Shown here: piece by piece, positions 4,731-63,507 of the stretch
Layout: every line of letters begins with the position of its first letter
How positions within the stretch are numbered: the stretch's first letter is position 1
The notes under the pieces: model-generated
The model's database searches: none
The model's input: the letters and a program-made list of their open reading frames with translations, nothing else
What the model was told of the DNA's origin: nothing
Position numbers and translations under genes: made by a program
Assembly: GCA_963734495.1 (NCBI GenBank)
Contig: CAVTHK010000001.1
Location: 576,001 to 640,000, forward strand
Source of the DNA: an uncultured Spirochaetota bacterium
Lineage (GTDB): Bacteria > Spirochaetota > Spirochaetia > SZUA-6 > CAVTHK01
Direction of reading: 5' to 3'
DNA: 64,000 bases

Positions 4731-5471
4731 CTACGACACGGCCAGGTCCACTCCTATCTGCAGGAGTCCCAGCCTTGCCGCCAGCCCGACGGACGCGATG
4801 TTGTCCCAGGAGGTGCTGTAGAGCGGGTTCATGGCCTGCTGACGCACGAGGGCGGCCCAGGCAGCCACGACCTCGGCTCCGTACCCGCGGCGGCGCAGGC
4901 GCGGAAGCGTCTCCACTCCGGCCTCCACATCGTGAGAGGATCGGCGAACGACCTGGCAGACCGAGACGGCGCGGCCGCCTTCGAGCCTGGCCACGCACGG
5001 CTGAACCAGGTCGAGCCGCTCGACGAGGTCGTCGAACCCATCGCGCAGAACGTGGGCTTTGCCGCGGTCCACGACCGTGACGCGCGGCGCGGCGGGCAAC
5101 TCCGTGGGAAACCTGTAGACGGGGCCGTGATGGACGATCTGCGTCTGCGAGGACGACGCCCCCAGCGCATCGCACAGGATGGCGCCCAGCTGCGCCTCCG
5201 CCCCGAACGGGAGGCTGCCCAGGGCGGCGCTCACGCGGCGTGCGGCCTCGTCCGAAACGTCATGGCGGACGGCGAACACCAGGACCCCCTGCCCGTGGCA
5301 GAGGTACGCCCGAGGGGCGGGACGCGTCGCGCCCCAGGGCTCGTTGATGGAAAGCAGCCGGCCCGCGCGATCACAGACGTACAGGAGCCGCGGGCGTCGC
5401 CGGATCACGTCGGCGTCGTCGAAGCTCGCGGCGGCATCCCTGGTTCCCACAGCTGCTCCGCGACCTCGCAC
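4731..5471 (-). CDS. GNAT family N-acetyltransferase
   Basis: EAGVETLPRLRRRGYGAEVVAAW acetyl-CoA motif; LYSTSWDNIASVGLARLG-type C-terminus; start uncertain. Confidence 0.8.
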   Translation of the reverse strand: MRGRGAAVGTRDAAASFDDADVIRRRPRLLYVCDRAGRLLSINEPWGATRPAPRAYLCHGQGVLVFAVRHDVSDEAARRVSAALGSLPFGAEAQLGAILCDALGASSSQTQIVHHGPVYRFPTELPAAPRVTVVDRGKAHVLRDGFDDLVERLDLVQPCVARLEGGRAVSVCQVVRRSSHDVEAGVETLPRLRRRGYGAEVVAAWAALVRQQAMNPLYSTSWDNIASVGLAARLGLLQIGVDLAVS

Positions 5472-5543: not shown

Positions 5544-6455
5544 TCAGCCGTTCGCTCTGTGATCGGCGAGGACCTGGTCGATCGTGCGGCGAGAGATGCC
5601 GGCAAGCGTCGGGTTGGTGCTCTTGTAGTACGGGAGCGCGATCAACCCGGTGGACAACGCCCAGCCGCTGCCCCGCGCCCAGCTCGCGTCATCGGCGGCG
5701 AGCGACGCGCGGAACACGACCCTGGTTTCGGCGGAGAGTAAGTTCCAGGCCACCATCAGGTCGCACGCGGGGTCGCCCACGCCCAGGCAGCCGAAGTCGA
5801 TGACGGCGCTGAGCCGACCCTGCTGCTCCAGAAGGTTCCCCGGCCTCAGGTCGCCGTGGATCCAAACCGGCGGGCCGCTCCACTCCGGGGCCCCGAGGGC
5901 CGCTTCCCACGCCCGCGCCGCGGCTTCCGTGTCGAGCGTGCCGCGCAGAGCCGCAAGCGCGGCGCGGACGCGCTCGTCCCGCGTCGCGAGCGGGACGCCG
6001 CGGCCCGAGTTGTGCTCGCCGGGCGCAGGCCCGCCGGAGGCGTCGACACGTCGCAGGGCGGCCACGAACCGGGCGAGCTGCCGCGCAGCCTCGCCCGGAT
6101 CAGCGAGACCTTCGAGGGTCGCCTCCTCGCCGTCGAGCCACCGGTAGATGGACCAGCGCCACGGGTAGCTCTCCGCGGGCTCGCCCATGGCGAGCGGGAC
6201 GGGGATGGCCAGCGGCAGGTGGGGGGCGAGCTTCGGAAGCCACTCCTGCTCCTTGTCCACCTGCCCGACCGCCCAATGGATGCGGGGCATCCGCACGACC
6301 ATGTCCTCGCCGAGCCGATAGAGCGCGTTGTCCGTCCCGGCGGTGGCAACCGCCTCGATGCGGAGGCCGGCCCACCGCGGAAACTGAGCGGCAAGCAGCC
6401 TTCGCACGAGGGATGCGTCGGTGTCCACCTCGTCGGCGTGCATTCTGCGGGTCAT
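5544..6455 (-). CDS. Aminoglycoside phosphotransferase (APH)-family kinase
   Basis: WIHGDLRPGNLL and VIDFG motifs, GDPACDL. Confidence 0.9.
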   Translation of the reverse strand: MTRRMHADEVDTDASLVRRLLAAQFPRWAGLRIEAVATAGTDNALYRLGEDMVVRMPRIHWAVGQVDKEQEWLPKLAPHLPLAIPVPLAMGEPAESYPWRWSIYRWLDGEEATLEGLADPGEAARQLARFVAALRRVDASGGPAPGEHNSGRGVPLATRDERVRAALAALRGTLDTEAAARAWEAALGAPEWSGPPVWIHGDLRPGNLLEQQGRLSAVIDFGCLGVGDPACDLMVAWNLLSAETRVVFRASLAADDASWARGSGWALSTGLIALPYYKSTNPTLAGISRRTIDQVLADHRANG

Positions 6456-6468
6456 GAGCGCCTCGCGC

Positions 6469-7528
6469 CTACGGCGCGGCCGCCCGCAGGAGGCGGGTCA
6501 CTTGGGCAGCGGAGGCCTCGAGCGGGATCACCCGCGAGCAGCGCCTGCCGCGCGCGAGCTCGGCCGGCGGCAGCGAGGCCTCGAGCGCGTCGACGGGCAG
6601 CAGGTGCGGGTGAGCCGCCACCCACGCCTCCGCCCGCTGCAGGTCGGCGGCGGCGACCGCCAGGTGCACCATCGTGACCGCGGGCTCGGCCTCGAGCCGG
6701 TCGAGCATCCGCGCGAGCGCGTCCTCGTCGAGCTCGCGGCCGTCGAGGAGGACCTCGATGGCGGCGGACTTCTTCAACTTACCTCTCTTCCTGGCGATGC
6801 GGTCAGCCTCGCGGTAGGAGGCCGGGTCGCCCACGTCCAGGCAGTCGCCGTCGATCAGCCACCCGTAGAACGGCGCGCGCGGGACCAGCCACTCCATCAT
6901 GGTACCGGGCGCGTCGGGGCGGCCGGTCGACGCGGGCGTACTCGCGGATGAGCGGCAACGCGTCGCGCGGGAACGTGTAGAACGCGATGCTCTCGATCGA
7001 GGTCGGGGGCCGCGCGGGCTTTTCCAGGAACTCCGTGATGCGGCCGTCGGGGGCGAGCACGGCGCAGCCGCGGCGGCCAGCGAGCTTCGCGGGGTCGCCC
7101 ACGTCCTCGCAGGTGTTGGCGCCGCCCCCCTTTTCGCGGGCGAAGGCGAGGAAAGCGGGGATGGAGAAGCTGAAGAGCTTGTCGGAGCACACCACGAGGA
7201 GGTCCTCGTCGAGGCCGAGGCGGTCCATGGCGAAGAGGAGGTCGCCGACGCTGCCGCGCCGCGTTTCGTTCGTCGTCGTCCCGTCGTCGAGCACCGTGAC
7301 CGGGCGCAGGCCCGCAGCCTTTGAGCGCCGCTGCCACAGGTCGAAGAAGGCGGCGTAGCGGCTGTTCGTGACCAGGGTCAGGTCTTCGATGCCGGGGGCC
7401 GCTGCCAGCGCCTCGACGGTCCCGTCGAGGAGGGGGCGGCCGCCAACGCGCAGGAGCGTCTTGGGGTAGAGGCGCGTGTAGGGGTGCAGACGCGTGGCGT
7501 AGCCCGCGGCCAGGATGACGGCCCTCAC
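6469..7528 (-). CDS. Sugar-1-phosphate nucleotidyltransferase (frameshift ~6900-6930) with C-terminal extension
   Basis: AVILAAGYATRL.P.T..PKTLL signature, FLEKP; DVGDPASYREAD in the downstream frame. Confidence 0.85.
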
Positions 7529-7564
7529 GCGAGCCCCTGCATGGGTCGGCGCTTCACGCCGCGC

Positions 7565-8599
7565 TCACGACCGGCCCGCCGGGTCCGCGGCGATACGGAT
7601 CCTGAGGGTCCGGTAACCTTCGCGCGCGTACGCCTCGTCCAGCTCGGCGTAGTGCTTGTCGCCGCTGCAGACGCCCACCGCCGCGCCGCCCGATCCCGAG
7701 AAGTTGGCGTGCGACCCGTGCTCGCGCGCGATCTCGATCATGCGCACGTTCTGCGGCGCCAGCGAGTAGACGCTGCGCCGCAGGTCGAAGTCGCGGCTCA
7801 TGAGGGCCCCGATGTCGCCCCCGCGGCCCGCCTCGAGGCAGGCGACCGCCTCGTCGGCGAGCGCCGCCTTGGCGGCCATCGCCTCGAGGACCCGGGCGTC
7901 GTGCTCCACCGAGACGCGGTAGCGCATGATGTTGTGGACCTCGCCCGAGGATTTCGACAGCTCGTCCTTGTAGGCGATGTAGAGCGGCGGCAGCAGGCGG
8001 GGATCGAGGTTGCGGTAGCCGCCGTGCCTGCCTTCGTTGGCAGCCCACGCCTCGCGGGTGAAGTCCATGTACACGAGGCCCCCGTAGACCGCGACCACGC
8101 GGTCCTGCGGCCCGGCGCTGATGCCGAGCTCCGCGGTCTCCGCCTCGAGGATGATGTTGGGCTGCACGGCCTTGGGGATGTCGCGAACGCTGAGCTCGTA
8201 GAAGCGCATGAGCGCCGCGAACACGGCCTTGATGATCGTGCTCGAGCCGCCGAGCCCGAGGCCGAAGGGCACGTCCGAGTCGTACTCTATGGTGAAGTTC
8301 CGCCGCGGAAGCTCGATCCCGTGCAGGTCGCAGTACTGCTTGAAGCGGACGAGGATCGCCTCGATGATCCGGATCCCGCCGTAGTAGCCGTAGGTTCTGC
8401 GGTAGCGCACGAGGTCGTCGAGGCTCTCGAAGCGCGTGAGGTCGCGGGCCGTCGGCACGATGTGCAGCTCGGGCGTCTCGTAGAGGACGACCTGCGCCTT
8501 GAAGGCATCGAACAGGAAGGAGATCACCTTCCCGTTGAAGATGTCCGAAGGGTTCCCGATGAGGCCCGAGCGGGCGTAACAGCTTTCTCTGATGATCAC
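7565..8599 (-). CDS. GHMP kinase, glucuronokinase-like
   Basis: ARSGLIGNPSD, GYYGGIRI, PFGLGLGGSS, ELGISAGPQDRV..VYGGLVYMDF, FSGSGGA; resembles plant glucuronokinase from recall. Confidence 0.8.
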   Translation of the reverse strand: MIIRESCYARSGLIGNPSDIFNGKVISFLFDAFKAQVVLYETPELHIVPTARDLTRFESLDDLVRYRRTYGYYGGIRIIEAILVRFKQYCDLHGIELPRRNFTIEYDSDVPFGLGLGGSSTIIKAVFAALMRFYELSVRDIPKAVQPNIILEAETAELGISAGPQDRVVAVYGGLVYMDFTREAWAANEGRHGGYRNLDPRLLPPLYIAYKDELSKSSGEVHNIMRYRVSVEHDARVLEAMAAKAALADEAVACLEAGRGGDIGALMSRDFDLRRSVYSLAPQNVRMIEIAREHGSHANFSGSGGAAVGVCSGDKHYAELDEAYAREGYRTLRIRIAADPAGRS

Positions 8600-17787: not shown

Positions 17788-18871
17788 CTAGAATCGGTTG
17801 ATGACTTCGACGACGCCGCGGATCTGCTCCTCGGTGTGGCAGTAGGAGATCGGCAGGCTCACCGTCGTGTTGTGGATCTCGTCGGCGATGGGGAACTCGT
17901 ACTCGTCCAGGAGCCCCTCGAGGGCCTTCTGCCTGCTCGGCGCCAGCGGGTAGTGCACGTCGGTCTTGATTCCGGCTTTGAGCAGGTGCTCACGCAGGGC
18001 GTCCCTCTTCGGGTGGCGCACGTTGAAGATGTGGTAGATGTCGTAGAAGCCGTCCTCGACGACGGGCTTTACAAAGTCGTCCTTGAGGTTCTCCAGGTAG
18101 ATGCGGGCGAGCCTGCGCTTGTGCTCGTTGATCTCGTCCAGGTGGCGGAGCTTTACCGAGAGGAAGCCGGCCTGCACCTCGTCGAGGCGCGAGTTGTAGC
18201 CCACGACTTCGTTGTAGTACTTCTTGATCGAGCCGTAGTTGCGGTACATGCGCAGCTTCTGCGCGATCGCGGCGTCGTCGGTGACGACCGCGCCGGCGTC
18301 CCCGAGGGCTCCCAGGTTCTTGGTCGGATAGAAGCTGAAGGCGCCCAGCCCGAAGGTGCCGACCCGCCGGCCCTTGTAGCGCGCCCCGTGGGCCTGCGCG
18401 GCAATCCTCGATGAGGGCCAGGTTCCTCCGGCGGCAGATCTCGAGAATCGGGTCCATGTCGCACGACTTGCCGTAGAGATGGACGGGCATCACGGCCCGC
18501 GTCCTGGGGCCGACCTTGGCCTCGATGAGCGCGGGATCGAGATTGTACGTGCGCAGGTCCGGCTCGACCAGCACGGGCCTGTGCCCGCACTGGAGGATCG
18601 CGAGGATCGTCGCGATGTAGGTGTTCGAGGGAACGATCACCTCGGAGCCGGCGGGCAGGTCGAGGACGCGCAGCGACAGGATCAGGGCGTCCAGCCCCGA
18701 GGCGACCCCGACGCAGTGCGCGGCACCGCAGTACCGGGCGAACTCCTGCTCGAACGCGGTGACCTTGCCGCCGAGGATGAACCAGCCGCCGTCGAGCGTC
18801 TCGGCAAGCGAGCGCTTGTACTCTTCGAAGAACGGCTCGTTCGCTTTGCGCAGGTTCTCGTAGTCGATCAT
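17788..18871 (-). CDS. DegT/DnrJ sugar aminotransferase, FdtB-like (frameshift ~18400)
   Basis: [25 protein letters not shown] in the shifted frame, [15 protein letters not shown]. Confidence 0.88.
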
Positions 18872-18888
18872 CGTGCTTCCTCCGGCGC

Positions 18889-19872
18889 TCAAGCGAGCCA
18901 CCAGCGGTTCTCGCGGGCCCACTCGATCGTGCGCTGCAGGCCCGCGGCCAGGGGTACTTTCGCCTTCCAGCCGAGGGTCTCCGCTGCCTTGCGGACGTCG
19001 GGCACGCGCCTGGGGATGTCCTCGTAGACCGCCCCGTATTCCCTGGTCGTGTCAAAGGGCACCATCTTCACGGCGGCTCCGGACACCTTGATCACCGTCT
19101 CGATCGCCTCGCGGACGCTCGTCTCCGTCGGGTTCCCGAGGTTGAATGCCTCGCCGACGGCGGCGGGGTTTCCGGAGGCTTCGAGGATGCCGTCCACGAT
19201 GTCGGCCACGTAGGTAAAGCAGCGGGTCTGGGTGCCGTCGTCATAGCACAGGGGCGGCTCGCCCCGCAGCACCTTGTAGACGCTCTGCGAGATGACGAAG
19301 TAGGGGTTCTGCCGCGGCCCGTAGACATTGAAGAAGCGCACGATCGAGAACGGCAGCCCGCTCTGGCGATGGATGCCGTAGATCATGTGCTCGCACACAG
19401 CCTTGCTCGAGCTGTAGCTCCAGCGGTCCACATACGTGGGACCGAGCACCCTGTCGCCGTCCTCGCGCCAGGGCGTTGCGGGGTTCTTCCCGTAGACCTC
19501 GCTCGTGCTGGTAAAGATGAACTTCGTGCCGTGCCGGCTCGCGAGCTCCAGGAGCGTCCGCGTGCCCCCGACCACGATGTCGATCAGCTTGAGCGGGTCC
19601 GCGAGGTAGTGCTTGATCCCCACGACCGAGGCCAGGTGATACAGGACCGCGGCCTCGGGGCGATAGAAGCGCTCGACCGCGGCCCTGTCCCTGAGATCGC
19701 CGACAAAGTACTTCAGGTTGGGATGGCTGCGGACCGCGGCCAGGTTGCGGGACTCCTCGAGGGGAGCGATGTCAAAGACGTGGACCTCGTCCCCGCGGTC
19801 GAGCAGCGCTTCGACAATGTGGCTGCCGACGAACCCGGAGCCTCCCGTGACCATGACAACGTTGCCGCTCAC
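18889..19872 (-). CDS. NAD-dependent epimerase/dehydratase/decarboxylase (extended SDR)
   Basis: VTGGSGFVGSH, TSTSEVYGK, RWSYSSSK, RFFNVYGPRQ. Confidence 0.88.
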   Translation of the reverse strand: MSGNVVMVTGGSGFVGSHIVEALLDRGDEVHVFDIAPLEESRNLAAVRSHPNLKYFVGDLRDRAAVERFYRPEAAVLYHLASVVGIKHYLADPLKLIDIVVGGTRTLLELASRHGTKFIFTSTSEVYGKNPATPWREDGDRVLGPTYVDRWSYSSSKAVCEHMIYGIHRQSGLPFSIVRFFNVYGPRQNPYFVISQSVYKVLRGEPPLCYDDGTQTRCFTYVADIVDGILEASGNPAAVGEAFNLGNPTETSVREAIETVIKVSGAAVKMVPFDTTREYGAVYEDIPRRVPDVRKAAETLGWKAKVPLAAGLQRTIEWARENRWWLA

Positions 19873-21175
19873 CTTCCCACCCCTTTGTAGCGCAGTCCAG
19901 CGCATCTCATCCGCTCGAGCTTGTCTCTGCAGATCATCCGGCCGTCAAAGATCAGCGCGCGGGGCCCGGCGAGGCGCGCGAGCTCCTCGATCGGAATCTC
20001 GGGGAACTCGCTGGGCCCGTAGTGGAACATGGAGACGAAGTGGGCACGCCGGAGGGTGTACGCCCTCCGAGGTCGCGCGAAAGGCGCGGCCCGCCACGGC
20101 GTAGGCGACTTCGTCGCTGACCCCGGGTCGTAGCATGCGGAGCGTCTCCGCGGAGCGCAGCGCGTCGATGACGCCCTTGGTGGGCGTGTAGCGGCAGTCG
20201 CCGGTGTTGTTGAACGCGATCCCGAGCACGGCCACGACGCGCGGCCGGGAACGCCGTCGTGGATGAGGCCGTCGATCAGGCCCGCCGAGTAGCCGGGCAT
20301 GCTGTCGTTGACGTTGCGCGAGGTCGCCGGGGTCTTCAACTCGATGCCGAGCTGGGCGCCCATGCCGTGCACGAACCAGGGGTCTTTGGTCAGGCAGTAG
20401 CCGCCGACGCCGACCGAAGGCGTGAGGATGTTGACGTGGTGGCGGCCCTTGGGAAGCGTGTTGGCGGCGTCGATCATCTCCAGGACGTCGATGTCGAGCC
20501 GGTCGCTGAGCTTGGCCAGCTCGTTGGCGAGGGCGATGTTCAGGTCGATCCAGAGGTTGTCCGCGAGCTTGACCATCTCGGCCGTCCTCGCGTCGGCCAC
20601 GCGGATCACCGGGACGCCGAGGCTTCGCTCCCAGAATTCGGCCGCCGCCCGCGTGCTCTCCGCATCGACGCCGCCGACCACGACCGGGATGTTGCGGAAC
20701 TCCTGGATCGCGCGGCCCTCGGCCAGCCGCTCCGGGCAGAAAGCCAGCCTGACCCGCGCACGCGCCTCGAGGATGGGGCGCACGACGTCGGCCGTGGTCC
20801 CGGGGGTACGGTGCTCTTGAGCATGACGAGGCGGCCGTCGCGCAGGTGCGGCGCCAGCTGCCGCGAGGCTTCCGTGATCTGGCTCAGGTCCGCGGCCCCG
20901 TGCTCGCCGAGCGGCGTGCCCACGGTGATGAGGACCACCTCGGCATCGGCCGCGGCCGACGCCGAATCCGTCACGCTGAGCCTGCCCGCGCGCACGGTCT
21001 CCGCGATCAGCGCATCCAGCCCCGGCTCGTTGAAGGGGCTGCGGCCCGCCGCGACCGCCTCGCGGATGGCCCCGGCGCGCTCCACGCCCGTGACGGAGTA
21101 GCCCCGCTCGGCAAGGACCGCGCCGATGACGGCGCCGATATAGCCGAACCCTATGACACAGACTCTCTCTTTCAT
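19869..21175 (-). CDS. Nucleotide-sugar 6-dehydrogenase (several frameshifts)
   Basis: VIGFGYIG, ITVGTP, KSTVPPG, FCPERLAEG, AEMVKL, GVGGYCLTKDP. Confidence 0.85.
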
Positions 21176-21576
21176 GCGAGCGCCGCCCTCTTGAACTCCT
21201 GGTAGTCGCGAATGTACTCCCCGGCGTCGTAGAGGCTGTCGCTCAGCACCAGAAGGACGCAGTCGGGCGAGAAGTCGTACATCTCTTTCCATGTCATGCG
21301 GTCGGCGAACAGCGCCTGAGAGGGCTCGGTCAGCTCGTACTCCGCAACGTGCCGGCCGTCGTCGACCCTGATGCGGCACCTGCCCGCCACGGCTACGAAC
21401 ACCATCTTCGAGACCCTGTTGGCGTGCTGGCCCCGCACCGAGCCCGACCCCATGCCGTACATGTAGAACACCCGCCTGATCTCGAAGGGGATGTCCTTGG
21501 ACCCCTCGGCAACGACCAGGGACCCGCGCGCGTCCGGCGTGCAGCGCAGGCGGATGAGATGCGAATTCGTGTCCAC
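21172..21576 (-). CDS. Sugar 3,4-ketoisomerase (FdtA/QdtA-like cupin)
   Basis: DARGSLVVAE, IPFEIRRVFY, RGQHAN, WKEMYDFSPDCVLLVL, EYIRDY. Confidence 0.9.
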   Translation of the reverse strand: MDTNSHLIRLRCTPDARGSLVVAEGSKDIPFEIRRVFYMYGMGSGSVRGQHANRVSKMVFVAVAGRCRIRVDDGRHVAEYELTEPSQALFADRMTWKEMYDFSPDCVLLVLSDSLYDAGEYIRDYQEFKRAALA

Positions 21577-55956: not shown

Positions 55957-56687
55957 TCAAAGCCTTCGTTCCTTTCTCTCGCGAGTCAGGCTGCGCGCCC
56001 GCGCCATGTGATTCGCGTCGTCGATCTCGGCCCAGCTGCAGGTCGGCGACGCGGCGGCAATAGACGGGCCTGCGTTTGGACGCGGCGACCAGGCCGCCGA
56101 CCTCGTACTCGCCTTCAGGCGGAAGAGCGCGCAGCAGCGCGGCCAGCGCAGGCGACACCCGCGTGATGCCGACCAGCTCGCCCGCCACCCCCGCGCCCAG
56201 CACGCCGCGGTCCTTGCTCATCGCCACCAGCCGCGCGTCGCCGTCGGTCTCCACCCACACCTCGTCGCCCGAGGCGGTCGGCCCCGACAACAGCACGACA
56301 TCCTCGTGCGGGTCGGCCAGCACCTCGTCGAGCGCGCGCGGCTCGTAGACCAGGTCCGACTCCAGGATCAGCAGCGGGCCGGCCGCGGCCGCCCGCTCGA
56401 GCCCCACCTGCAGCGAATAGAAGCTGCCCAGCTCCGCGAACTTCGGGTTGTGCACGGTCTCCACGAGCCCGGCGCGACGCGCGGCCAGCTCGCCGGTAGA
56501 AGTGCGCCAGGTGCCCGGTCACGATCACGACGCGCCCGACCCCGACCGCGACAAGCTTGTCGAGCGACTCCTCGATGATGGGCCGGTCGCCGAGCTTGAG
56601 GAACCCCTTGGGGATCTCGCTGCCCAGCTTGCCCAACCGCGTCCCGCGACCGGCCGCGAGGATGACCGCAGTCGTGACGTCGTTCAC
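55957..56687 (-). CDS. Phosphonate/phosphocholine cytidylyltransferase (PntC/LicC-like; frameshifts ~56495 and ~56035)
   Basis: AVILAAGRGTRL, PKGFL, HNPKF..GSFYSL, LESDLVY, GELVGI, WAEIDD. Confidence 0.82.
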
Positions 56688-57824
56688 CTGGCGAACCGCT
56701 TGCGGAACACGCCGATGAGCCGCTTGAGATCCCCGTCGCCGATGGCACCCATGTTGGCGATGCGGAAGATGGAGTGGTAGAGCCCGGCCTGGCCCGCGTA
56801 GATCACGAAGCCCGCCTTCTTCAGCAGGTCGTGGAGCTCCTGGTAGGTCGCCCCCTGGGGAAGGGTGAAGGAAGAGATCACCGCGCCATAGGCGTCCTCG
56901 GGGAGGAAGCGCCTGATCCCGATGGCGTCGAGCTCGGCGCGTATCGTCTCCGACAGGCGCCGGTAGCGCTCGTGGCGCGTCCGCCAGCCGCCGCCCGCCT
57001 CCAGCTCCGCCAGCGCCTCCTGCATCGCCACGCACACGTGCGTCGCCTGCGTGAACGGCGAGAAGCCGCTCTTCTGCTCCTTGTAGTAGCGGTAGAGGTC
57101 CAGGTAGACCGAGGTGGCGCCGGTCCTGCCGGTCTCCAGCAGCTCGCGCCGCGCCATGACGAAGCAGATGCCGGGCGCGCCGTGGATGCACTTGTTCGCC
57201 ACGGCGCAGAGCGCGTCGAGGTTCCAGTCGGCGAAGCGGATGTCCTCGCCCGCGAAGCTGCTCACCGTGTCGAGAAGGAGTCGCCGCCCGTGTTTCTTCA
57301 GCACGCGGGCAAGGGCGGGCACGTCGTTGAGCCTGCCGGTGGTCGTTTCGTTGTGCACCGCGAGCACGTGCGTGATCGACGGGTCCGCGGCGAGCCGCGC
57401 ATCGGCCTCGGCCACCTTGATCGGCTCGGGCCACTCGGAGCGCACGAGCACGAGCTGCTTGCCCTGAGCCTCGATCATCGCGGCCATGCGCTCGCCGTAG
57501 ATGCCGTTGGCCATCACCAGCACCTTGCCGCCGCGCGGCACGAAACTGGAGATCATCGCCTCGACGGCGCAGGTGCCCGAGCCGGTCATGAGGATCGCCT
57601 CGTAGTCGCGCTCCGACTCCTCGTACACGCGCACGAGCCACCGCCTGATGTCGAGGACGAGCTCGGCGAACTCCGGCTCGCGGTGGCAGAGGTCCTCCTT
57701 GAGCAGCGACTTCCGCACCCGCTCGGTCAGCGTGACCGGCCCCGGATTCAGGAGGATGGTGCGCGCGGGCGGCCTTGGCGCGCGCGGCCACCTTGCGGAC
57801 CGGGCGGCGGGCGACCTTCTTCAT
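56684..57824 (-). CDS. aepZ: 2-aminoethylphosphonate aminotransferase (frameshift in first ~20 codons)
   Basis: ILLNPGPVT, DLCHRE, GSGT.AVEA, NGIYGERM, VHNETTTG, DTVSSF, ANKCIHG. Confidence 0.88.
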
Positions 57825-57825
57825 T

Positions 57826-58971
57826 TTACTTTCCCTCCTTGACGCAGGCGCGAAAGCGGGCAGCCACCTCGGGCGGCGTGATCGTCGGCCTGGGCAGGTC
57901 TTCGGGCGCGCCCGGAACAATCTTTACATGAAGAAGGCTCAACGCCGGCGCCCCGTCGCGCGCGAGGAACGAGGCGACCTCGTCGGGCGTCGTCGCGCGT
58001 GCGGTCACGGGGTAGCCGCAGGCTGCGGCGATGGCGCAGAAGTCCACGGAGTGCGACACCGTCGACTGGCCGCCCGTGGACTCGTGCATCTGGTTGTCGA
58101 GCAGCACGTGGACGAGGTTCGGCGGCCGCTCGTAGCCGACGGTCGTGAGCCCGCCCATGCGCATGAGCACCGCCCCGTCGCCGTCGAGCACGATGATCCG
58201 GCGCTTCGGCCGCGCAAGCGCGAGGCCGAGCCCCAGGCTCATCGCGCACCCCAGCGAGCCGACCATGTAGAGCTGCTCGCGGCGGTCGTCGAGGGAGTAG
58301 AGCTCGCGGCCGGCAAAGCCGGTCGAGGCGATCACGAGGTCGCCGGGCCGCAGGCTCGCCTGCACCGCGCGCAGGATCTCGGCGCGGGGGACGCGGGCCG
58401 GGAGGGCGCCCTGGGGGGCCGGCGGGGAGGCGAGGGGGCGGGCCTCCGGCCTGCTCTTGAGCTTCCAGTCGGCGACGGAGCCCTTCTTCATCACCAGGGC
58501 GTAAGGGAGACCTTTGCTCTCCATGTGAGCTATGGCGCGGTCGAGCGCGGGCTCGACGTCGGCGTCCTTCTGCGGAAAGTACTCCCAGGGGATCTCCATC
58601 ACCTCGAGCATGCGCGTCGTGATGGGCCCCATGAGCGCGTGCTGCGGCTCGTCATGCGGGCCTCCGGGCTCGCCCCGCAGCGTCGTGATCACGAGGATCG
58701 GGATGCGGAAGATCGCGTTCAGCGAGGTGAGGGGGTTGACCGCGTTGCCGAGCCCCGAGTTCTGGAACATGGCGATGGCGCGCACGCCGCCCAGGTCGGA
58801 GCCGGAGGCGATGGCCACGGCGTCGCCTTCGTTGGCCGCCGCGACGTAGCGCAGGTCGGGCGAGTCGATGACGTAGTTGATGAAGGGCTTGAGGTAGGAG
58901 CAGGGCACGCCCGACCAGAGACCGAACCCTCTGCGTTTCGCGCCCTCGGCAAAGATCTGCGCTGAGATCAC
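57826..58971 (-). CDS. ppd: Phosphonopyruvate decarboxylase
   Basis: [53 protein letters not shown]. Confidence 0.95.
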
Positions 58972-60589
58972 TGGAACCTCCCGGCGAGCACCAGGTCATC
59001 CAGGCTGTCGATGTCCAGCCAGTTGCCCGTCGTGTAGAGGACCCGCACGCGTTGTCCGCTCGCGAGCAGCGCGTTGACCAGCTCGGGGATCTTGGAGGCG
59101 CGACCGCCGGCGCGCGGCCAGGAGGTCGGCGACGGCCTTGCGCAGAGTGGCGCAGCGAGCCCCGGGCCACTTTGAGGAACCCCATCCACTCGCCGTGGAC
59201 GCTTGCCTTCGACGCGCTCGTGGACCATGCGGGTGAGGTAGACCTTCTGCGCCGAAGACCTCGCGGGAGTAGGGCAGGGTGCACTGCGCGTAGTCCGACG
59301 TCGCGGCCGCGGTTCACGCTCTCCTGCCACGCCGTGTCGACCGCGATGGTAAAGGCCTCGTCGCTCTCGGAGAGCATCTCGAGGATGTACTTCTTGAAGA
59401 GCACGTCCCCGTAGGAGACGATCGTGTCCTTGTCGCCGGGGAGCGCCTCGAGCGCCTTGGCGAGCGAGGCGACCTCGCCCGTGCTCTCGAAGTCGGGGTT
59501 GTCGGCGTAGCGAACGCCGGGGAGGTCGACCGCCTCCTTGCAGTAGCCGCGCACCACGGTGACGTCCTTGATGCCGACCGCGTTGTACCCGTCGACGATG
59601 CGCGAGAGAAGCGGCTGTCCCGCGATCTCGACCATCGCCTTGGGCCTCGTCAGCGTGAGGTCGCCCAGCTCCTTGCCCCTGGCGGCCGCGAGCACGATGG
59701 CCTGGTTCTCGGCGCCGCGCTGCGGGAGGTAGAGCTTCTCCGCCTCCTCGAGCTCCTTTTCGCCCTGCAGCCGGAACACCTCGGCGACCGGGGCGATCGA
59801 GTCCTCGACCGACATCAGCCCCTCCGCTTCGGCAATGGCCCGGGCCGTCCGCTGCATTCCCGCGATGGCGGCCCGCACGACGTGGTTGGCCCAGATCGCG
59901 ATGGCAAAGCCGTACCGGCGGAAGACGTCGGTCGGTGTCGAGTAGTACTTGGTGGGCACGATCACCACGGGCAGGCGGTCGCCCCATTCCTTCTTGAACG
60001 CGAGCACCTCGTCCGGGACGGAGAGCGCGCTGTGAATGAGGATGCCGTCCGCGCCGGCGAGACGGTAGGCTTCGGCGCGGCGCAGCGCCTCCGCGAGGCC
60101 CCAGCCCGCGATGAAGGCCTCGACGCGGGCGATGATGCAGAAGTCCTCGTCGCCCTGGGCGTCCTTGCCGGCCTTGATCTTGCCCGCGAACTCGTCCATG
60201 TCCGCCAGCGGCTGCGCGGTGCCGCGGATAAAGCTGTTGGTCTTCGGGAAGAGCTTGTCCTCGATGCAGACGGCCGCCACACCGCGCTGCTCGAGCTTGC
60301 GCACGAGGCGCCTCATGTTGTTGAAGTTGCCGTACCCGGTGTCCCCGTCTAGAAGGATAGGGACGGTGGTGGCATCGGCCATGAACTCGATGACGTCGAG
60401 GACCTGGGTCCAGCTCGCCTCGTTGCTGTCGCGCACGCCGAGCTGTGCCGAGATCGAGAGGCCGCTCCCCCAGATCCCCTTGAAACCGGCCTCCTCGACG
60501 ATCCGCGCGGAGAGGCCATTGTGGGCCTCGCAGAGGAACTCGAGGCGGGGGGAGGTGAGGAGCTTCTTGAACTGCTTCGTCTTTTTCAT
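58968..60589 (-). CDS. pepM: Phosphoenolpyruvate mutase with C-terminal nucleotidyltransferase domain (frameshifts 59100-59300)
   Basis: [22 protein letters not shown], diagnostic [10 protein letters not shown]; second domain [30 protein letters not shown]. Confidence 0.95.
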
Positions 60590-62534: not shown

Positions 62535-63395
62535 TCAGCCCCGTGGCACCCTGTCCCGGTAGCGGGAATTGACGCAGACAAACGACGGGTTGTGCAGGTC
62601 CGGCTTGTTGTACACGAGCGGCTCGCGGGAGCCCGCGCGGCACAGGCTGCCGCCGGCGGCCTCGACCACCGCCTGACCGGCCGCGACGTCCCACTCGTAT
62701 GTGGGCCCGATGCGCGGATAGACGTCCGCCAGCCCTTCGGCCACGTGACACATCTTCAGCGAGCTTCCCGAGGAGCGGGTCACGACCTCGCCGAAGAGGC
62801 GGCGGCACTCGCCGATGTAGGCGTCGGTTTCCGGGGTCATGTGCGAGCGGCTGGCGGCCACGGTGAAGACGCGCGTGCTCTCCGCCGGCAGCCGCACGGA
62901 CCGCAGCGCGACCTCCTCCCACTCCGCGCCTCGGTCGGCCAGGGCCGCGAGGGCCCCGGCGTCGCTCAGGCGGTAGGCCGCGCGCGACGGCACGTGGCCG
63001 AAGTAGGCGAGGGAGGGAACCGGGGCAAACACGAGCCCGAAGACCGCCCGGTCCCGCTCGACGAGGGCGATATTGACCGTGAACTCGCCGTTGCGGCTCA
63101 CGAACTCCTTGGTGCCGTCCAGCGGGTCCACGAGCCAGAAGCGCTTCCAGCCTTTGCGCTCGTCAAAGGGGATCTCGCGGCCCTCTTCGCCAAGAAAAGG
63201 GATCGAGGCATCGGCGTCGGCGAGGATCTCGCGGATGCGCTGCTGGGACCGCCGGTCGGCCTCGGTCAGGGGAGACGCGTCGCTCTTGGTCTCGACGGCG
63301 AAGTCCGTCTCGTAGACGCGGAGGATCTCGCGGCCGGCCGCCCAGGCCGCGCGCAGCGCGGCCTGCAGCAGCGGCGTGCGCGGTTCAGATTTCAA
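62535..63395 (-). CDS. cysQ: 3'(2'),5'-bisphosphate nucleotidase
   Basis: SPLTEAD, WLVDPLDGTKEF, EFTVNIAL, ASRSH, GSSLK, EWDVAAG. Confidence 0.93.
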   Translation of the reverse strand: MKSEPRTPLLQAALRAAWAAGREILRVYETDFAVETKSDASPLTEADRRSQQRIREILADADASIPFLGEEGREIPFDERKGWKRFWLVDPLDGTKEFVSRNGEFTVNIALVERDRAVFGLVFAPVPSLAYFGHVPSRAAYRLSDAGALAALADRGAEWEEVALRSVRLPAESTRVFTVAASRSHMTPETDAYIGECRRLFGEVVTRSSGSSLKMCHVAEGLADVYPRIGPTYEWDVAAGQAVVEAAGGSLCRAGSREPLVYNKPDLHNPSFVCVNSRYRDRVPRG

Positions 63396-63507
63396 GGGCT
63401 GGAACCTCCGCGGGCGCGGCGGGCAGCTCGTTGTGGAAACGCGCCGTCAAAGGATTCGGGACGGAGCCGCCGCAGGGATGTGTCGCGGGCCCGCCGCGGG
63501 TTGCCTT

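Follow-up and report, generated by a model that had tools for sequence, protein, structure and literature searches.

The subject of this analysis is a pair of sugar-activation genes at positions 6,469 to 8,599 of a 64,000-nucleotide (nt) stretch of DNA from an uncultured Spirochaetota bacterium (GenBank assembly GCA_963734495.1, contig CAVTHK010000001.1, positions 576,001 to 640,000 of the forward strand). This whole stretch is referred to as the window, and all coordinates below are positions within it unless a relative is named. The pair consists of a kinase gene followed by a nucleotidyltransferase gene, and resolves into the following features, with protein lengths in amino acids (aa).

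7565 to 8599, minus strand: glucuronokinase-family GHMP sugar kinase (P0001), intact, GTG start, 344 aa, with the family motifs and GHMP domains.
7529 to 7564, minus strand: 36-nt spacer from the kinase stop to the transferase start, with two further GTGA words inside.
6932 to 7528, minus strand: N-terminal part of the NTP-transferase in its true frame, about 199 codons through ...IREYAR, matching PF00483.
6928 to 6931, minus strand: single extra base that shifts the transferase frame, placed by DNA alignment with the same-genus relative L001.
6793 to 6930, minus strand: C-terminal part of the transferase catalytic domain in the shifted frame (STGRPDAPGTMMEWLV...DVGDPASYREADRIA), identified by translation and ortholog match.
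6469 to 6792, minus strand: C-terminal extension of the transferase, about 105 aa plus stop, of no known family and common to L001, L002 and L020.

As the window has a G+C content of 68%, third-position G+C (GC3) was used to choose genuine reading frames, and the kinase frame has a GC3 of 0.95. The translated kinase matches both GHMP_kinases_N (PF00288, 5.3e-10) and GHMP_kinases_C (PF08544, 9.1e-06). An earlier reading of this DNA made from the letters alone (the sequence-only reading) had quoted the motifs GNPSD, GYYGG, AG.QDRV, SG.VH and GSGGA for this gene, and all of them were found in the 344-aa translation, with GNPSD at residues 15-19, GYYGG at 71-75, ELGISAGPQDRVVAVYGGLVYMDF at 157-180, SGEVH at 218-222 and FSGSGGA at 300-306. 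The 36-nt spacing that it gave between the two genes was confirmed, with the kinase stop at 7565-7567 and the next GTG at 7528.

Database comparisons place the kinase in the glucuronokinase family. By BLASTP it was 40% identical over 335 residues (E 5e-69), and 45% over 280 residues, to a plant protein named glucuronokinase in UniRef. A search among longer proteins returned 24 matches, 18 of which contain both PF00483 and PF00288, and named animal fusions of the NTP_transferase and GHMP domains (from sea urchins, a sponge, an annelid and crustaceans) were 41-46% identical over 93-97% of the kinase query. The resemblance to plant glucuronokinase proposed in the sequence-only reading is borne out by this 40-46% identity to named plant and animal members, which comprise nine named sequences. 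Of 8000 candidates scored in a word-indexed search, 4235 proved to be relatives; among the best 120 of these, which were 54-100% identical, 24 carry the JGI automatic name "glucuronokinase" and none carries any other name. An exhaustive HMMER search returned 378 clusters (at 50% identity) with E<=1e-30. None of the NCBIfam equivalogs claims the kinase: the HddA model NF049969 gave 43.9 bits against a cut-off of 600, and over only part of the model (positions 70-176 of 338), the GalK model gave 17.3 bits against a cut-off of 443, and mevalonate kinase gave 27.8 bits. Among solved structures the nearest were HddA-type kinases at 42-44 bits, with none from the glucuronokinase family, indicating that no structure of this family exists.

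A FastTree phylogeny of 172 rows was built from the window kinase, 32 kinases from related loci, 135 proteins with a near-full kinase domain and four HddA-like outgroup sequences, excluding proteins whose kinase match spans fewer than about 290 profile positions. All 168 family rows were split from the four HddA-like rows with a support of 100, and the window kinase fell within a clade, also supported at 100, of 22 bacterial rows that come mostly from Spirochaetota metagenome-assembled genomes, with one row from Planctomycetia and one from Lentisphaerales. The named plant and animal kinases lie in a derived group of 79 rows. As backbone support between groups is just 80-90, no conclusion is drawn on the direction of any gene transfer. 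The GYYGG insert, NPS and QDRV are missing from the HddA-like rows, and the family motifs of the window kinase align with the plant and animal rows. By homology, the kinase is a member of the plant and animal glucuronokinase family and not an HddA or GalK, which answers the phylogenetic check that had been proposed with the sequence-only reading.

The second gene is less straightforward to read. An NTP-transferase had been reported after the kinase, and a PF00483 enzyme does begin 36 nt on; its coding sequence is split over two frames, which had gone unnoticed. The open reading frame (ORF) at 6803-7528, with its GTG start at 7528, matches PF00483 at 1.6e-21, though only over profile positions 2-188 of 245. 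It departs from the true frame after ...IREYAR (about 6932), and its final ~40 codons are Arg/Pro-rich noise. The genuine continuation of the transferase (RPDAPGTMMEWLV...DVGDPASYREADRIA; PDAPG...W..D.G...Y) and the extension lie in the other frame, within the ORF at 6469-6900. In the same-genus relative L001 the transferase ortholog is intact (334 aa, L001:7032-8036), and a DNA alignment with it places a single surplus base at about 6930 in the window. A contig of a related strain from a wetland metagenome (run X3, record 19, depth 3.5, one contig) is also one base shorter at 6928.

The canonical catalytic motifs of the enzyme class are kept in the transferase as AAGYATRL, YPKTLL and LEKP (G-x-x-T-R, PK and EKP). 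Its best NCBIfam score was to archaeal AglF (63.7-65.2 bits against a cut-off of 400), with no cut-off reached, and its nearest solved relatives are mannose-1-phosphate guanylyltransferases and one RmlA at about 43 bits. Among named identities, GalU was rejected on 31.8 bits against the TIGR01099 cut-off of 326.8 (nor was GalU among the matches of the intact ortholog P0148 at 1e-10), and MurU on 36.1 bits against the NF045761 cut-off of 250, over the first 50 residues only. Over 207 residues, P0148 and the N-terminal domain of the Oscarella fusion were 30% identical (E 4e-26); no alignment was obtained between P0148 and a GalU-type bacterial fusion.

A profile was then built from the 19 transferases encoded directly downstream of the kinase in related loci, alongside a comparison profile from four GalU-type N-terminal domains, the class comparison being limited to sequences gathered in this analysis. 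The 19-transferase profile scored the named animal N-terminal domains at 105-147 bits over their full length, against at most 16 bits for the GalU-type profile, and scored GalU-type domains at 29-43 bits. In the window's own genome it gave 250.7 and 51.6 bits (the latter at positions 198-243) for the two window pieces, 53.9 bits for the next paralogue and 44.1 bits for RmlA. At a 25-bit threshold, 71 kinase-domain proteins of at least 450 aa divided into 37 with an N-terminal domain of the window-transferase type, four of the GalU type and 30 of neither. A block, (D/N)DGT(T/S)..N..R.G(S/A).GD, is common to the bacterial transferases and the fusions and is missing in RmlA and GalU-type sequences. 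All 20 bacterial members have the catalytic Thr-Arg of G-x-x-T-R-L, whereas the Arg is found in 11 of 22 fused domains; the EKP motif is kept in all, in the 20 of 20 bacterial members and the fused domains alike. On these scores and motifs, the transferase is none of GalU, RmlA, MurU and HddC; it corresponds in bacteria to the "putative pyrophosphorylase" domain found at the N-terminus of the animal fusions.

Some further observations concern relatives and parts of this protein. P0296 and P0297 (Bacillota, 687 aa) are 43-47% identical to the transferase and appear to be fused to a ProA-like (glutamate-5-semialdehyde dehydrogenase-like) domain. P0053 (580 aa) was rejected as a bacterial fusion, its first ~220 residues being an Arg-rich over-called frame with no transferase match. 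The C-terminal extension (about 95-125 residues; L001:7765-8036) is present in four of the six orthologs compared and missing in L005 and L019; it has weakly conserved patches (LD..D..AL, AW.A..P.LLP..LEA and GCS) and gave no match in Pfam or NCBIfam and no usable Atlas match.

Where the transferase occurs, its genomic coupling to the kinase is strict. Thirty species-representative loci were found with the kinase alignment, three of which are cut inside the kinase, leaving 27 that could be assessed. The transferase lies directly downstream of the kinase in 19 of these, and in 17 of the 19 the kinase stop and transferase start overlap in an NTGA word, the other two having a 9-nt gap and a broken kinase. 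The 36-nt spacer of the window is atypical for the pair because of this prevailing overlap. The spacer (7529-7564) resembles a short insertion in which the GTGA stop/start word occurs three times, where relatives have a single GTGA or TTGA overlap. A search of 61 genomes from the window's order found the kinase in 21 of them and, at E<=1e-15, the transferase in 16. The 15 transferase matches of at least 164 bits are without exception in kinase-holding genomes at coordinates adjoining the kinase, and the 40 kinase-free genomes contain a single weak match of 58.5 bits; as the genomes of an order are kin, these counts describe a pattern and do not amount to a statistical test. The kinase is rare in the phylum as a whole, with 4 positive genomes out of 301 sampled, and four kinases from the phylum and order, 40-49% identical to that of the window, are followed by a GalU-type gene instead. 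A survey of pair conservation had been suggested earlier as a check, and it found the transferase downstream in the majority of loci, with strong matches solely in kinase-holding genomes. This pattern indicates that the kinase and the transferase that follows it are functionally tied.

We therefore interpret the pair as a two-gene sugar-salvage unit that most likely converts D-glucuronate (GlcA) to UDP-glucuronate, corresponding in unfused, bacterial form to the fusion enzyme GKUP (glucuronokinase with putative uridyl pyrophosphorylase) of animals and fungi, and assign this reading a probability of roughly 0.6. In such a route, the GHMP sugar-1-kinase would phosphorylate the free sugar at C1 with ATP, and the small RmlA-like nucleotidyltransferase would join the resulting sugar-1-phosphate to an NTP, most likely UTP, to yield an NDP-sugar for glycan synthesis. 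We infer the identities of the sugar and the nucleotide from the characterized relatives, and D-glucuronate is the probable substrate of the kinase on that basis. D-glucuronate is the specific substrate of Arabidopsis GlcAK and of zebrafish DrGK, and phosphorylation of D-GlcA at C1 with ATP, with no activity on galacturonate (GalA) or neutral sugars, is known only for the Arabidopsis, Lilium, zebrafish and Xenopus enzymes (PMC2823444, PMC3938481).

Comparison with known systems sharpens what is particular to this pair. The likeness is closest to GKUP (zebrafish DrGKUP, PMC3938481), in that the kinase is 41-46% identical and the transferase belongs to the PF00483 subclass of the fusion's N-terminal domain. 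The window, however, has two genes, kinase then transferase, whereas the fusion has the transferase at its N-terminus. The fusions also carry an 11-12-residue insert after the G-x-x-T-R motif that the bacterial transferase does not have, half of the fused domains have lost the catalytic Arg that the bacterial transferases retain, and motif II of the kinase reads PFG in the window and PRQ in the fusion. With plant GlcAK (At3g01640, EC 2.7.1.43; PMC2823444) the window shares the kinase family, at 40-45% identity, and the two-step salvage logic. The plant partner, the UDP-sugar pyrophosphorylase USP, is by contrast unrelated, unlinked and of broad specificity. Plants obtain GlcA through MIOX, which was not found in the window's genome. 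Glucuronokinase-GalU pairs and fusions of other bacteria (L036-L038, L055, P0139-P0142) resemble the pair in kinase family and in the kinase-then-transferase layout. Their partners, however, are GalU-like (P0140 and P0142 reached 195 and 206 bits against TIGR01099, compared with 31.8 bits for the window transferase), and their kinases are 40-49% identical to the window's and keep PRQ. Judged from these scores, the window pair is distinct from the glucuronokinase-GalU pairs. Bacteroides Fkp (L-fucokinase/GDP-fucose pyrophosphorylase) likewise serves sugar salvage in bacteria and combines a nucleotidyltransferase with a GHMP sugar-1-kinase, but it is fused, comes from other kinase and transferase lineages and is specific for GTP and fucose. 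HddA and HddC are a GHMP kinase and a small PF00483 transferase encoded together, but the window proteins score far under those family cut-offs and HddA-like sequences form the outgroup of the kinase tree.

Several lines of evidence weigh against this interpretation, and they concern the biochemistry of the relatives, the coupling, the sugar and the integrity of the transferase gene. The zebrafish and Xenopus domains had no pyrophosphorylase activity in standard assays, with trace UDP-GlcA after 70 h (PMC3938481). The full-text literature searched (subscription journals mostly lie outside it) contained no assay of a bacterial member and no description of a bacterial pair. The statement in the sequence-only reading that it knew of no characterized bacterial example is consistent with that search, but bacterial homologues themselves were already known, from JGI names and from Pieslinger et al. 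2010, which reports glucuronokinase genes in "a few bacteria" and lists Dyadobacter and Verrucomicrobium in a figure legend (PMC2823444). Gangl et al. 2014 describe the N-terminal domain of the fusion as resembling bacterial nucleotidyltransferases, with the bacterial and archaeal proteins consisting of that domain alone; the text of that paper contains no wording of the type operon, adjacent, neighbo- or gene cluster (PMC3938481). A word-indexed search with the transferase among long proteins gave six matches and no animal fusion. We attribute this miss to the filter on 5-residue words, given an identity of about 30%, and profiles were used instead.

The coupling also has exceptions, with 8 of the 27 kinase loci lacking an adjoining transferase. 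Five of the transferase-less genomes were searched whole; one (Lentisphaerales) has a transferase on another contig at 44% identity, and the other four (three Spirochaetia and one Poribacteria) have no transferase at E<=1e-10. In one Spirochaetia relative (L014:7420-9180), a DDE transposase occupies the expected place of the transferase and may explain its loss there.

The strongest of these points bears on the sugar. In a conserved-column test, 94 columns were at least 93% conserved across 25 animal-type fusion and four plant-type sequences, and the window clade differs from this animal and plant consensus at 24 of them. Motif II, which reads IPRQ.GL.GSS in the family, is IPFG.GLGGSS throughout the window clade; at this position the 168 family rows have Arg in 119 (RQ in 91) and Phe in 24. 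Other changes in the clade are AGLQDRV to AGPQDRV (L164 to P), NFDLR to DFDLR (N270 to D), the Gln after QDRV. to Ala (Q170 to A) and PSDSG to LSKSSG. As the window clade has lost the motif-II Arg of the family, the substrate is less certain than the sequence-only reading implied. No MIOX, as a source of free glucuronate, was found in the 83%-complete genome, a weak negative since 14 of 14 control genomes were also blank.

These substitutions raise the alternative that kinases of the PFG clade, with their partner, activate another sugar (a uronic, N-acetyl-hexosaminuronic or neutral sugar), giving an NDP-sugar other than UDP-GlcA. We regard this as unlikely, though it deserves serious weight, as the changes to Arg, L164, Q170 and N270 are clade-wide at positions that are conserved from basal bacteria to plants and animals, and as the assayed plant and animal enzymes belong to a clade that is not the sister of the window clade (backbone support 80-90). 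In addition, the genome encodes just two nucleotide-sugar dehydrogenases, which both lie in the window and score better with UDP-ManNAc/GlcNAc dehydrogenase models than with Ugd models, so that hexosaminuronic acids may be in play. Against this alternative, the window kinase is identical at 70 of the 94 conserved columns, including R10, G15-N-P-S-D19, GYYGG, Q165-D-R-V168, H222, R228, R274 and GSGGA. The putative catalytic D166 is unchanged, as are the motif-I residues (R10 and G15-N-P-S-D19), whose counterparts in other GHMP sugar kinases, as in galactokinase structures, would line the sugar pocket. PRQ is retained in basal bacterial clades, GalU-linked clades, plants and animals, and one more basal bacterial clade (L027 and L028) keeps it together with the same type of partner, so partner type does not track the motif-II substitution.

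The remaining points concern the transferase gene in this assembly, where 6469-7528 is not one open gene owing to the frameshift and where the usual 4-nt gene overlap is replaced by the 36-nt spacer. The salvage unit could on this evidence be decaying in this genome, with a true transferase pseudogene and a kinase that works alone or is on its way out, a possibility that we consider real but doubtful. It draws on the base at about 6928-6931 that neither the same-genus ortholog nor the related short-read contig has, on the loss of translational overlap to the spacer, and on three close relatives that keep the kinase without a detectable partner. The two halves nonetheless remain coding-like, with GC3 values of 0.88 and 0.96, and are about 77% (N-terminal part) and about 69-70% (C-terminal part, against P0148) identical to the intact ortholog. 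At least two more genes within 15 kb of the pair are split in the same manner: a DegT-type aminotransferase, with profile positions 6-148 and 198-359 in different frames, and an NDP-sugar dehydrogenase, whose N-domain positions 2-127 and 125-183 fall in different frames. Their positions are as follows.

17788-18922, minus strand: DegT-type aminotransferase gene, split between frames.
19869-21379, minus strand: nucleotide-sugar dehydrogenase gene, split between frames.

The assembly comprises 18 contigs, yet is 83% complete compared with 99% for a 220-contig congener, which is the pattern of long-read indel errors, and the split genes suggest that single-base indels are frequent in this assembly. 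Given two more split genes and low completeness at 18 contigs, the transferase frameshift is more likely an assembly error than the mark of a dead gene. The best sequencing run contains 0.30 of the words of the stretch and none reaches half, and no RNA dataset with these words was listed. In four wetland-metagenome runs, contigs from related strains match the stretch only as short pieces, one of which touches the frameshift.

The genes directly beyond the transferase were considered for a third explanation of the pair.

5544-6455, minus strand: APH-family phosphotransferase, PF01636 at 5.6e-43, starting 13 nt after the transferase stop.
4731-5471, minus strand: GNAT-like acetyltransferase, following the APH gene.

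The position of the APH ORF, 13 nt past the transferase stop on the same strand, would allow the transferase to serve this kinase in a peptidoglycan-sugar recycling route like that of AmgK and MurU, rather than the GHMP kinase. We consider this highly improbable, as the APH protein is unmatched in all 30 related loci (as is the GNAT protein), the MurU score of 36 bits against 250 covers the first 50 residues only, and the overlap and co-occurrence of the GHMP kinase and transferase are conserved. Least credible of all is an HddA/HddC-type heptose kinase and guanylyltransferase pair for GDP-heptose, for although the kinase, outside its own family, matches HddA best in both NCBIfam and PDB and the HddC model scored 42.8 bits on a related transferase, those scores are far under the cut-offs (43.9 against 600 and 42.8 against 300), the HddA-like outgroup sits on a branch of about 2.6 substitutions per site, and its rows lack the GYYGG insert, NPS and QDRV.

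The D-glucuronate salvage reading can also be set against the surroundings of the pair. The flanks of the 27 loci are variable, with no constant gene beyond the pair. Polysaccharide genes (GT4, GT2, Wzx-like, Wzt/ABC-2, Wzy_C, pyruvyl transferase and SDR epimerases) are found in about ten of the 27 loci, and other flanking genes include sulfation genes in three loci, inositol-monophosphatase-family genes in two and a GH2 hydrolase in one. The frequency of surface-polysaccharide neighbours fits a product that would be used by glycosyltransferases. The inositol-monophosphatase-family genes are convergent to the pair (L006:4345-5238 and L013:7789-8859), the one in the window lies 54 kb away (62535-63446), and they could be CysQ-like or inositol-linked.

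In the window itself, a sugar cluster extends over about 13 to 55 kb and includes RmlA (425 bits, above its cut-off), FdtA, the split DegT gene and a GDP-mannose dehydratase (586 bits, above its cut-off), with SDR enzymes that score below every equivalog cut-off. The sequence-only reading had proposed that the pair feeds a nearby UDP-GlcA epimerase and a uronate-rich glycan. This proposal was not upheld, as no nearby gene in the window scores over any equivalog cut-off for a UDP-GlcA epimerase, and the neighbouring sugar genes read better as a predicted dTDP-amino-deoxyhexose route (RmlA, FdtA and DegT). Bacterial UDP-glucuronate is textbook Ugd chemistry, and the 83%-complete genome shows no evident canonical Ugd. 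Elsewhere in the window, a TPP-dependent decarboxylase-like gene adjoins a class-V aminotransferase gene (56684-58995, minus strand), an arrangement that presumably recalls aminoethylphosphonate synthesis, and a diguanylate cyclase (GGDEF) with an N-terminal 'vitamin uptake-like sensor' (VUPS) domain is encoded at 1059-2351 on the plus strand.

The novelty of the pair is bounded by the automatic naming of such kinases as glucuronokinase, by the bacterial homologues noted in 2010 and by the damage to the window copy in the assembly. Within those bounds, a kinase/pyrophosphorylase bypass to UDP-glucuronate has previously been demonstrated only in plants and, incompletely, in fish, where the pyrophosphorylase half of the fusion is nearly inactive in vitro and its function is still labelled "putative" (PMC3938481). 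The occurrence of both modules in bacteria as separate, translationally coupled and co-occurring genes provides independent genomic evidence that the two act in one pathway. As the modules are separate and coupled, and as the bacterial transferase retains the catalytic Arg, which is gone from 11 of the 22 fused domains, the bacterial pair would be a simpler and more promising system for demonstrating activity. If the assignment to glucuronate is correct, a compact bacterial pair from GlcA to UDP-GlcA would be useful for enzyme-based nucleotide-sugar synthesis; if instead another sugar is activated, the clade would have a sugar-1-kinase specificity so far undescribed for the glucuronokinase family. 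Finally, the kinase family is paired in bacteria with two unrelated transferase classes, one GalU-like and one GKUP-like, and this bears on the origin of the eukaryotic fusion.

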